Below the pieces are notes generated by a model. That model saw only the letters and a program-made list of their open reading frames with translations, made no database searches and was not told the origin of the DNA. The position numbers and the translations under genes were made by a program. From assembly GCF_022045235.1 (NCBI RefSeq), contig NW_027266286.1, positions 50,964,001-51,028,000 of the forward strand: a stretch of 64,000 nucleotides of DNA. Reading direction: 5' to 3'. Source of the stretch: Haliotis cracherodii (taxonomy: Eukaryota). Each line of letters begins with the position of its first letter. Position 1 is the stretch's first letter. Below are positions 26,733 to 28,351 of the stretch, in pieces.

Positions 26733-27245
26733 TTAGGTTTGGGCTTGGGTGTGAGCGTTGATTAGGAGGTGTAGGTTGTTGTGAATGGATGGGTGAGTGG
26801 TTATATAATTACCTTTGAAGTTCTCCCTGGGCTTGCTATCAGCGGTGCTGTGCGTGGGCTTGAGGAGGCTCTGGAGGCTTGGAGAGGTGTTGCTCGCTTG
26901 GAGTACAAACTGCAACTGGACTGGACACAATAAAATCCCTGACGTACCTTTATCATCATCACATATGCGTGTTATGTGCGTTGCTGCTACGTTATCTCTG
27001 TTACCACAAGAACCTGATGTCTTGATGCGAGCATTGATGGCCACCTGGTTGTCACCAACCTTGTAGTTGGCCAAGATGTATTTCAGAACAGCCTGTCGGG
27101 AAGAACCACCCCTCTCCTTCAGGGATGAAATAGCTTTCTTGATCATCTCCAAATAGGTAGGATGTGCGGCAGCCTTCTTAGGCTTGGCAGCAGCCTTCTT
27201 CTTGGGAGTCTTGACAGCAGCGGGGGCAGCAGCAGCATCAGCCAT
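26733..27245 (-). pseudogene. H1: Truncated H1 (first 76 aa) fused by a 480 bp deletion to spacer and family A 5' UTR (170 aa chimeric ORF)
   Basis: Junction AAGAACCTG|AT|GTCTTGATG at 27016-27019 joins unit-1-equivalent 499 and 980; C-tail, stem-loop and both AATAAA lost. Confidence 0.93.
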
Positions 27246-28351
27246 AGTGGTAAGTTTGAGTGGTAAAAATTCACGTCAGCTACGAGAGAAGCACAGAGAG
27301 CGAATGACACTTCCCCACAGACGGCCCGGCTGATACTCCGGAGGCGCGGACGTCGGAGGAGACACCTTGCTTGTTGTGGCTGATAGCTGCACGCTTACAA
27401 GCGCGTGTGCTTTTTCGTGTATTTGTATCCGAATAATCACTTCTTAATCAAGGAAAGTTTCAATTTCAACAACACAGTTAGGTAGTAAAAACATTTGGCT
27501 ACATTTCGGTTACAATAGCAACACTCACGGGTGAAGTTCAAAGCCACACGTGATGTTTCCAATGAAGCGACCCAGTCTAAATTGTAGACATCGCTACTTT
27601 CAAAAGCACATTTTTAGCCTTGAGACTCAAGTTTTTGCATTTTAAACGTTGCCTGTCAATTCTCAATATATCTAACTATGAAAGTAAAACACAACACTCA
27701 TCAGTATTGTCTATGATAAGCTAGAACAAGCGTTCAAACAACGACAATGAAGCACGTTTTTCTGACGACTTCGCCATTTTGCAACAGAAAACATTTGACA
27801 GTATATTTCTGGAAACATAATTTTGGTCACTTCAATAAAGTTGAAACTAACTTTGTCATAACAAGTAAGTAACGGGGATTTTACTTTCAGGAAAACAGTC
27901 TACTAAGACGAGGATCTCGGGACACAAGCACTTAGGGCGCGAAGCCCCGAACAGTAACATATATACATAGGTGTTTAGATCACTCGATCGGTCGTCACAG
28001 ATTAAGTCTTTTTGCCTGTCTTAATAGCACGATATTAGTAGGGGTCTTCGTCGTTTGGATGTTAATATTACCAGAACAATATAGGCTACCATGCATCAAC
28101 GAAAAGTGAATGTTTCAGACGAGAGGCCGGATCGAGTGAGCGAGTGTGCCGGGCCTCGTGTTAAACAGTGATCACATGTTTTTACAACGGCTAGATTTTG
28201 TAGATTTTAATCCCTGTAAATATACATCATAAATCAACAAACACAACATGTCTACTGAACCCGCTGAAAACGCGAGCATGCTGTTTTCATGGCAATGTCT
28301 TTTTACCAATGTGCGGTGTGTATATGTAGCTAAAGTTTGCCGATAAGCATT

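Follow-up and report, generated by a model that had tools for sequence, protein, structure and literature searches.

In Mytilus, H1-only repeats alternate with 5S rRNA genes in interspersed tandem arrays, as set out in PMC4106214. The array analysed here has the same arrangement, and the nearest Atlas cluster is made up mostly of Mollusca. The Mytilus arrays were mapped by FISH in that account, whereas the present one can be followed at base level, with a 3.01-kb unit, genes on opposite strands, and LINE insertions. Histone pseudogenes under birth-and-death turnover, as described in PMC13525598, provide a second point of reference, since here too a broken copy lies amid many intact ones. However, at this locus a full-length LINE adjoins the broken gene, giving an open chimeric frame.

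The LINE, referred to as A1, shares with the Drosophila I factor and the I superfamily (I, Nimb, and Ingi), as described in PMC2881922, an ORF1 with what appear by eye to be three Cys/His motifs, an ORF2 with APE, RT, RNase H, and a C-terminal Cys/His region, a tail of short repeats, and a target-site duplication (TSD). Nonetheless, A1 ORF1 has no Pfam match, the likeness is one of architecture rather than of an RT tree, and the A1 promoter is predicted. R2 elements in rDNA (PMC2881922) resemble A1 in that they, too, are LINEs placed downstream of a host promoter within tandemly repeated genes. However, R2 is site specific and has no promoter of its own, whereas family A, to which A1 belongs, is scattered through the genome, with one 3' allele in 136 copies, keeps its 5' end constant, and accounts for one insertion event in the array.

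The H1/5S array and the deletion junction

The window, i.e., the whole 64,000-nt stretch that was analysed, is part of contig C23 of a 1.18-Gb animal assembly and lies within the tandem H1/5S array. Each unit carries H1 on the minus strand (187 aa, with an Rfam Histone3 stem-loop and two AATAAA signals) and 5S on the plus strand. On C23 the array, in which 60 5S genes and 53 187-aa H1 ORFs were counted, extends over ~220 kb up to a 100-N gap; contig C39 contains 23 further units, one of them partial. The array comprises ~80 units. Full-length H1 of 187 aa, whose nearest solved structures are H1.0/H5, accounts for 73 of the 88 H1 matches genome-wide, and with 73 intact copies left, the supply of H1 is unaffected by the broken copy. 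Variants of 174 aa (three, at the left array edge), 183 aa (one), and a frameshifted form (one) also occur (L008-L009, L019, L063). SNP haplotypes are grouped in local blocks along the array, and units are distinguished by SNPs of their own.

Table 1. Features around the broken H1 copy and the two LINE A copies (window positions).
Feature	Position	Strand	Basis or remark
H1 upstream/promoter region, unchanged	27246..27600	-	matches 36418-36772 of next intact unit
H1 5' part (nt 1-227): N-tail and globular-domain profile positions 1-48 of 74	27019..27245	-	Pfam
2-nt filler replacing 480 bp	27017..27018	-	alignment to intact unit
Spacer remnant of 92 bp, with the 5' copy of the 10-bp TSD at 26925-26934	26925..27016	-	sequence comparison
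Intact counterpart of the lost 480 bp (H1 codons 77-187, stem-loop, two AATAAA)	35711..36190	-	
Intact H1, 187 aa, upstream of A2	35854..36417	-	ORF listing, Pfam, structure comparison
5S rRNA gene, unit between A1 and A2	28352..28470	+	Rfam
170-aa chimeric ORF: 76 H1, 31 spacer, and 63 LINE 5'UTR codons	26733..27245	-	
Full-length LINE A1 ending in a (CAGT)n tail; 3' copy of the TSD at 20766-20775	20776..26924	-	
A1 5'UTR of 404 nt, free of ATG, with ATTAAA at 26688; presumed to contain an internal promoter	26521..26924	-	promoter activity inferred
A1 ORF1 (555 aa) without Pfam match; by eye, three Cys/His clusters	24853..26520	-	
A1 ORF2, 1252 aa: APE endonuclease, RT, RNase H, weak C-terminal zf-RVT	21047..24805	-	Pfam
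LINE A2, same site, TSD, and ends; one substitution from A1 (31053)	29470..35618	-	

The broken H1 copy (ATG at 27245) and A1 both lie on the minus strand, as a preliminary description of this DNA had stated (Table 1). Comparison with the next intact unit bears out each part of the loss reported there: 480 bp were exchanged for 2 bases (net change, -478 bp), H1 being retained up to codon 76 (Thr) and its codons 77-187 being lost together with the Histone3 stem-loop (35770-35815 in the intact unit), the purine-rich, HDE-like tract behind the stem-loop, and both AATAAA signals (35749 and 35719). The same comparison supports the earlier statement that the promoter is intact, in that the 355 bp before the broken ATG match the next intact unit at 100%. 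No canonical TATA box was seen in this upstream region (27246..27600); TCATTC at 27307-27302 is presumably an Inr-like motif. A1 begins 92 bp beyond the junction (previously put at ~90 bp), at 26924, the family start being at 26918. Templating of the two filler bases, either by a CATCA repeat 7 nt upstream or by ATCAG from the element tail, was considered and is without support, as 2 of the 16 dinucleotides give a match of at least 5.

The junction gives a single full-length match in 1.18 Gb (among the best 40 of 162 candidates, which were scored) and was found once in the H1/5S arrays on C23 and C39. It is a real, single-copy feature of the assembly. The C23 array holds three deletion junctions, namely, the broken H1 before A1, 13619/13623, and L007:7966.

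It is unlikely that the junction, or the A1-A2 tandem, is an assembly artefact in which reads, or two haplotypes, were wrongly joined within a near-identical array. Such an error would fit the lack of any record that spans the junction or the A insertion in the eight sequencing runs examined out of 21, as well as the fact that the array stops at the 100-N gap while 23 more units lie on C39. However, only run X6 is deep enough to count (flat depth of 1864 over the spacer, ~20-fold per unit). No bridge over the junction or the A insertion was found among the X6 records listed, and the X6 sample likely lacks both. Runs X20 and X21 were sampled at ~1 in 100 reads (~1.6-fold genome), which is too shallow for a single-copy junction, and X1, X2, X4, and X5 have a unit depth of 20-67, i.e., ~1-fold per copy or less. 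The runs are without the A insertion too, so they come from non-carriers or are too shallow. Moreover, the units are resolved with SNPs of their own, the two bases at the junction are present on neither side of it, and even if two alleles had been falsely joined in tandem, one of them would truly carry the deletion. Loose read ends at 26925, 27016, and 27019 are ordinary unit sequence. Run X8, presumed to be RNA, contains the family 5'UTR/ORF1 and a piece of H1, with no record over 26944-27011, and this sample is likely without the allele. Overall, the sequenced runs appear to include no carrier, and the read results fit a private allele. Array depth over 26870-27070 (~20-28 in X21 and ~4-8 in X20) is far under that of ~80 units at 1.6-fold; a difference in copy number or a filter is possible.

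The chimeric frame and the predicted read-through RNA

The deletion leaves the frame of 170 aa that the preliminary description had reported, with a stop 212 nt upstream of ORF1 (given there as ~210 bp) and in a different frame from it. The length of this ORF is not above chance, because one of the three 5'UTR frames is open for 63 codons, so that 32 of the 102 breakpoint positions behind the second AATAAA yield a tail of at least 63 codons; selection for a long ORF was rejected on this breakpoint null. The Pfam match of the chimera stops within the globular profile of the linker histone, and the winged helix is incomplete. The 85-aa tail of intact H1 has 39 Lys, whereas in the 94-aa new tail of the chimera Lys is outside the six commonest residues. 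A linker histone without a full globular domain and a basic tail is expected to bind nucleosomes abnormally.

It is plausible that transcription reads through from the H1 promoter into A1: Pol II could enter the element because the promoter is intact and no stem-loop is left. Should the promoter fire, Pol II would continue into A1, and the ribosomes, initiating at the strong AUG of H1, would make a 170-aa protein without the end of the globular domain and without the basic tail. They would rarely get to ORF1, and the RNA would be a poor template for retrotransposition. The read-through RNA would contain seven AUGs upstream of ORF1, the first in a strong context and none in a frame that fuses to ORF1. 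Owing to the cis preference of LINE proteins, such an RNA would then be left without proteins of its own. Re-initiation varies with the length of the upstream ORF, according to PMC3894237. For any read-through RNA, a dampening of ORF1 or no effect is likelier, judging from the predicted transcript, than activation, the dampening being the alternative already raised in the preliminary description. Poly(A) signals within A1 (16 AATAAA and seven ATTAAA) are common to every family transcript and thus do not discriminate. Within the searches made, no paper was found on LINE read-through in histone arrays.

Family A and the search for a source element

Both A1 ORFs are intact (555 and 1252 aa), the ORF2 domains above the Pfam cut-off being PF14529/PF03372, PF00078, and PF00075, and the element has a 10-bp TSD and a short tandem-repeat tail, (CAGT)n. 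Family A is young and dispersed. Its common 3' end has 136 exact matches in the assembly, and the tails of its insertions are variable. All 28 of the 3' ends examined elsewhere lie in other flanks, on which grounds site-specific targeting of the family to the array was rejected. Among the 28 other 5'-end loci, 27 start at element position 0-9, the remaining one being matched by an internal piece only, and ORFs of 555 and 1252 aa are kept in nine of the 20 other copies compared. Indirectly, an internal promoter fits this family in that the fixed 5' end recurs in varied flanks (PMC2881922 and PMC3894237), and family A likely spreads from a promoter in its own 5'UTR. The absence of ATG from this 5'UTR is unremarkable for its base composition (~1.8 expected, an estimate). 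Related LINEs, represented by a fragment or by their 3' end, are often found directly beside family A copies (L031, L048, L049, L074, L087, L089, L098), and several of these copies have one short flank in common, which suggests re-used sites or a preferred repeat.

Target-primed copying begins at the 3' end of the element. The progeny of A1 or A2 should therefore have the allele found in these copies at 20794, only 20 nt away from that end. In the haploid assembly of one individual, this allele occurs in two places, A1 and A2, and none elsewhere, the family allele occurring in 136; likewise, the ORF1 allele at 26301 is limited to A1 and A2. The ORF2 allele at 24224 is found in four places only, i.e., A1, A2, and the C4 and C45 copies, which are 5'-truncated (at element positions 2139 and 1946, respectively) and 99.6% and 99.9% alike to A1/A2. 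A1 and A2 are the sole full-length members of this four-copy sub-lineage in the assembly. The C4 and C45 copies apparently arose before A1 and A2 split, because both have the family base at 20794.

Thus, the possibility raised in the preliminary description, that A1 is a source copy, finds no support for the time after the A1/A2 split, whereas a weaker form of it stands, in which their ancestor was perhaps a source. The array ancestor of A1 and A2 may have been active, apparently before the duplication, and the junction is unneeded for the origin of the C4 and C45 copies, save for a rare exchange within the 92 bp that restored the A2 flank. More specifically, a single array ancestor might have given rise to both copies by means of its own promoter before it was duplicated, which would make the deletion irrelevant and would be compatible with turnover of the array as the cause of the junction. 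This is tentatively conceivable, although at less than even odds: the 24224 allele is confined to the four copies, of which C4 and C45 are truncated and no other full-length member is present in the assembly, but a parent missing from the haploid assembly would give the same pattern, and the nesting depends on one site inside an A-run.

That the deletion itself made A1 a productive source driven by the H1 promoter is very unlikely. The intact promoter, the loss of all 3' processing signals, the two intact ORFs, and the position of A1 and A2 as the only full-length members of their sub-lineage speak in its favour, and R2 is known to be co-transcribed with its host repeat (PMC2881922). Nonetheless, the 20794 allele is carried by no copy outside A1 and A2, and the closely related truncated copies predate the split. 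Seven upstream AUGs and a 170-codon upstream ORF stand before ORF1, and re-initiation hinges on the length of that ORF (PMC3894237). As is known for L1, transduction of 5' sequence from an upstream host promoter is the expected trace of productive read-through; it has no counterpart here, H1 or spacer sequence being attached to none of the 28 other family A 5'-end copies. So far, there is no sign in the assembly that the H1 promoter has produced any retrotransposed copy.

Probable duplication, end joining, and turnover of the array

A1 and A2 differ by one substitution (22359/31053) in 6,140 bp; they have in common the TSD, six extra 5' bases, the tail, and the flanks, and form the terminal pair among 21 full-length copies. 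Because the site, TSD, extra bases, and tail are common to both, and because they are a terminal pair separated by one substitution, A1 and A2 are likely a single insertion duplicated at the DNA level rather than a parent and its retro-copy. The substitution named in the preliminary description is indeed the only one between the two copies. As a marker, however, it identifies A2 and not A1, since the A2 base at 31053 is private (present in none of the 20 other family copies), whereas A1 has the family allele. SNP 22359 alone is therefore insufficient to recognize A1, and phasing with a rarer allele, e.g., 22568, is needed.

Alternatively, reverse transcription of a read-through RNA from A2, extended at its 5' end by 92 nt of flank, might have yielded A1 in the adjacent unit together with a target deletion, but this origin is extremely unlikely. 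This would account for the identity of the 92 bp as well as the element, the junction at L007:7966 has a comparable flank of ~100 bp, and loss of target DNA is possible at LINE insertion (PMC2881922). However, it requires an identical nick, tail, and TSD in the adjacent unit, whereas insertions of the family are scattered and differ in their tails, and the derived allele is in A2, not in A1.

Duplication as DNA must itself have involved more than one step. From the left flank, the unit that lies between the two elements is separated by five substitutions within 1.44 kb, the remaining 7.25 kb containing one (p = 6e-4 if substitutions were spread evenly); from the right flank it is separated by two. 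A single simple duplication is insufficient because the five substitutions are clustered, and further exchange is needed. The junction arose by either of two routes, namely, a non-homologous tandem duplication of 8,694 bp with later exchange, or unequal crossover with a separate deletion, and the flank SNPs are compatible with both.

A2 is in H1 orientation, 177 bp after an H1 stem-loop, and the array contains further LINEs. Throughout the C23 array (the window plus L007-L020 and L051-L063), ~41 kb of 220 kb (19%) is LINE DNA belonging to four families, and the C39 units (68 kb) contain none. E1 (L008:1080-6994) and E2 (L009:2946-9215), which belong to another family, are 99.6% alike and have the same TSD; both follow the H1 orientation and are inserted where H1 transcription is predicted to start, ~62-72 bp before the ATG. 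Two long frames are open in E2, and E1 lacks ~354 bp of ORF1. They would be better candidates for promoter capture than A1 because no H1 ORF precedes them. E0 (L007:4937-7966) is a deleted copy at the left array edge whose 3' flank is not array sequence; at the L007:7966 junction, 77 nt of H1 and 102 bp of H1 promoter sequence are joined to a LINE 5' end, giving a 116-aa chimeric ORF in the same layout as at A1. Site-specific targeting was rejected for the small family E (E1 and E2 in the array and E0 at its edge, with eight of 11 elsewhere) and for family B (two of the 20 loci examined in the array, 18 outside). A full-length LINE B (window 52573-58787) and a 200-bp 3' piece, C (11351-11551), which comes from a different family and is 80% alike, occupy the same nick, 1-2 bp before the 5S start; another B copy (L019:3443-9655), inserted in the opposite orientation, precedes a 5S gene by 48 bp. 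At 13619-13623, the ends of a ~945-bp deletion coincide with the site of element D (L015:2037-6387) and the B/C site, and this deletion was possibly made by an endonuclease.

It could be proposed from these observations that the H1/5S array is a LINE nursery: 19% of it is LINE DNA of four families, and intact copies in H1 orientation occur right behind an H1 unit (A2), within one (A1), or where its transcription is predicted to start (E2). On this view, a dispersed sub-lineage would descend from the A copy of the array as its master, and through the deletion an active element, too young for progeny, would recently have captured an S-phase histone promoter. As a whole, this proposal is decidedly improbable. 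It is more reasonable to regard the junction as a neutral by-product of turnover in an array of ~80 H1/5S copies, i.e., as an ordinary private rearrangement, to which we assign a probability of approximately three in four. The LINE likely inserted once into the array and was then likely duplicated together with its unit, as DNA, and repair by end joining likely produced the junction.

If read-through were nonetheless productive, a retrotransposon would gain replication-linked expression from a histone promoter, which could be a route to activity in the germ line or the embryo, and the private alleles of A1 and A2 make productive read-through directly testable. As it stands, this locus is a clear case of a histone/5S array churned by a young LINE, by duplication, and by end joining.
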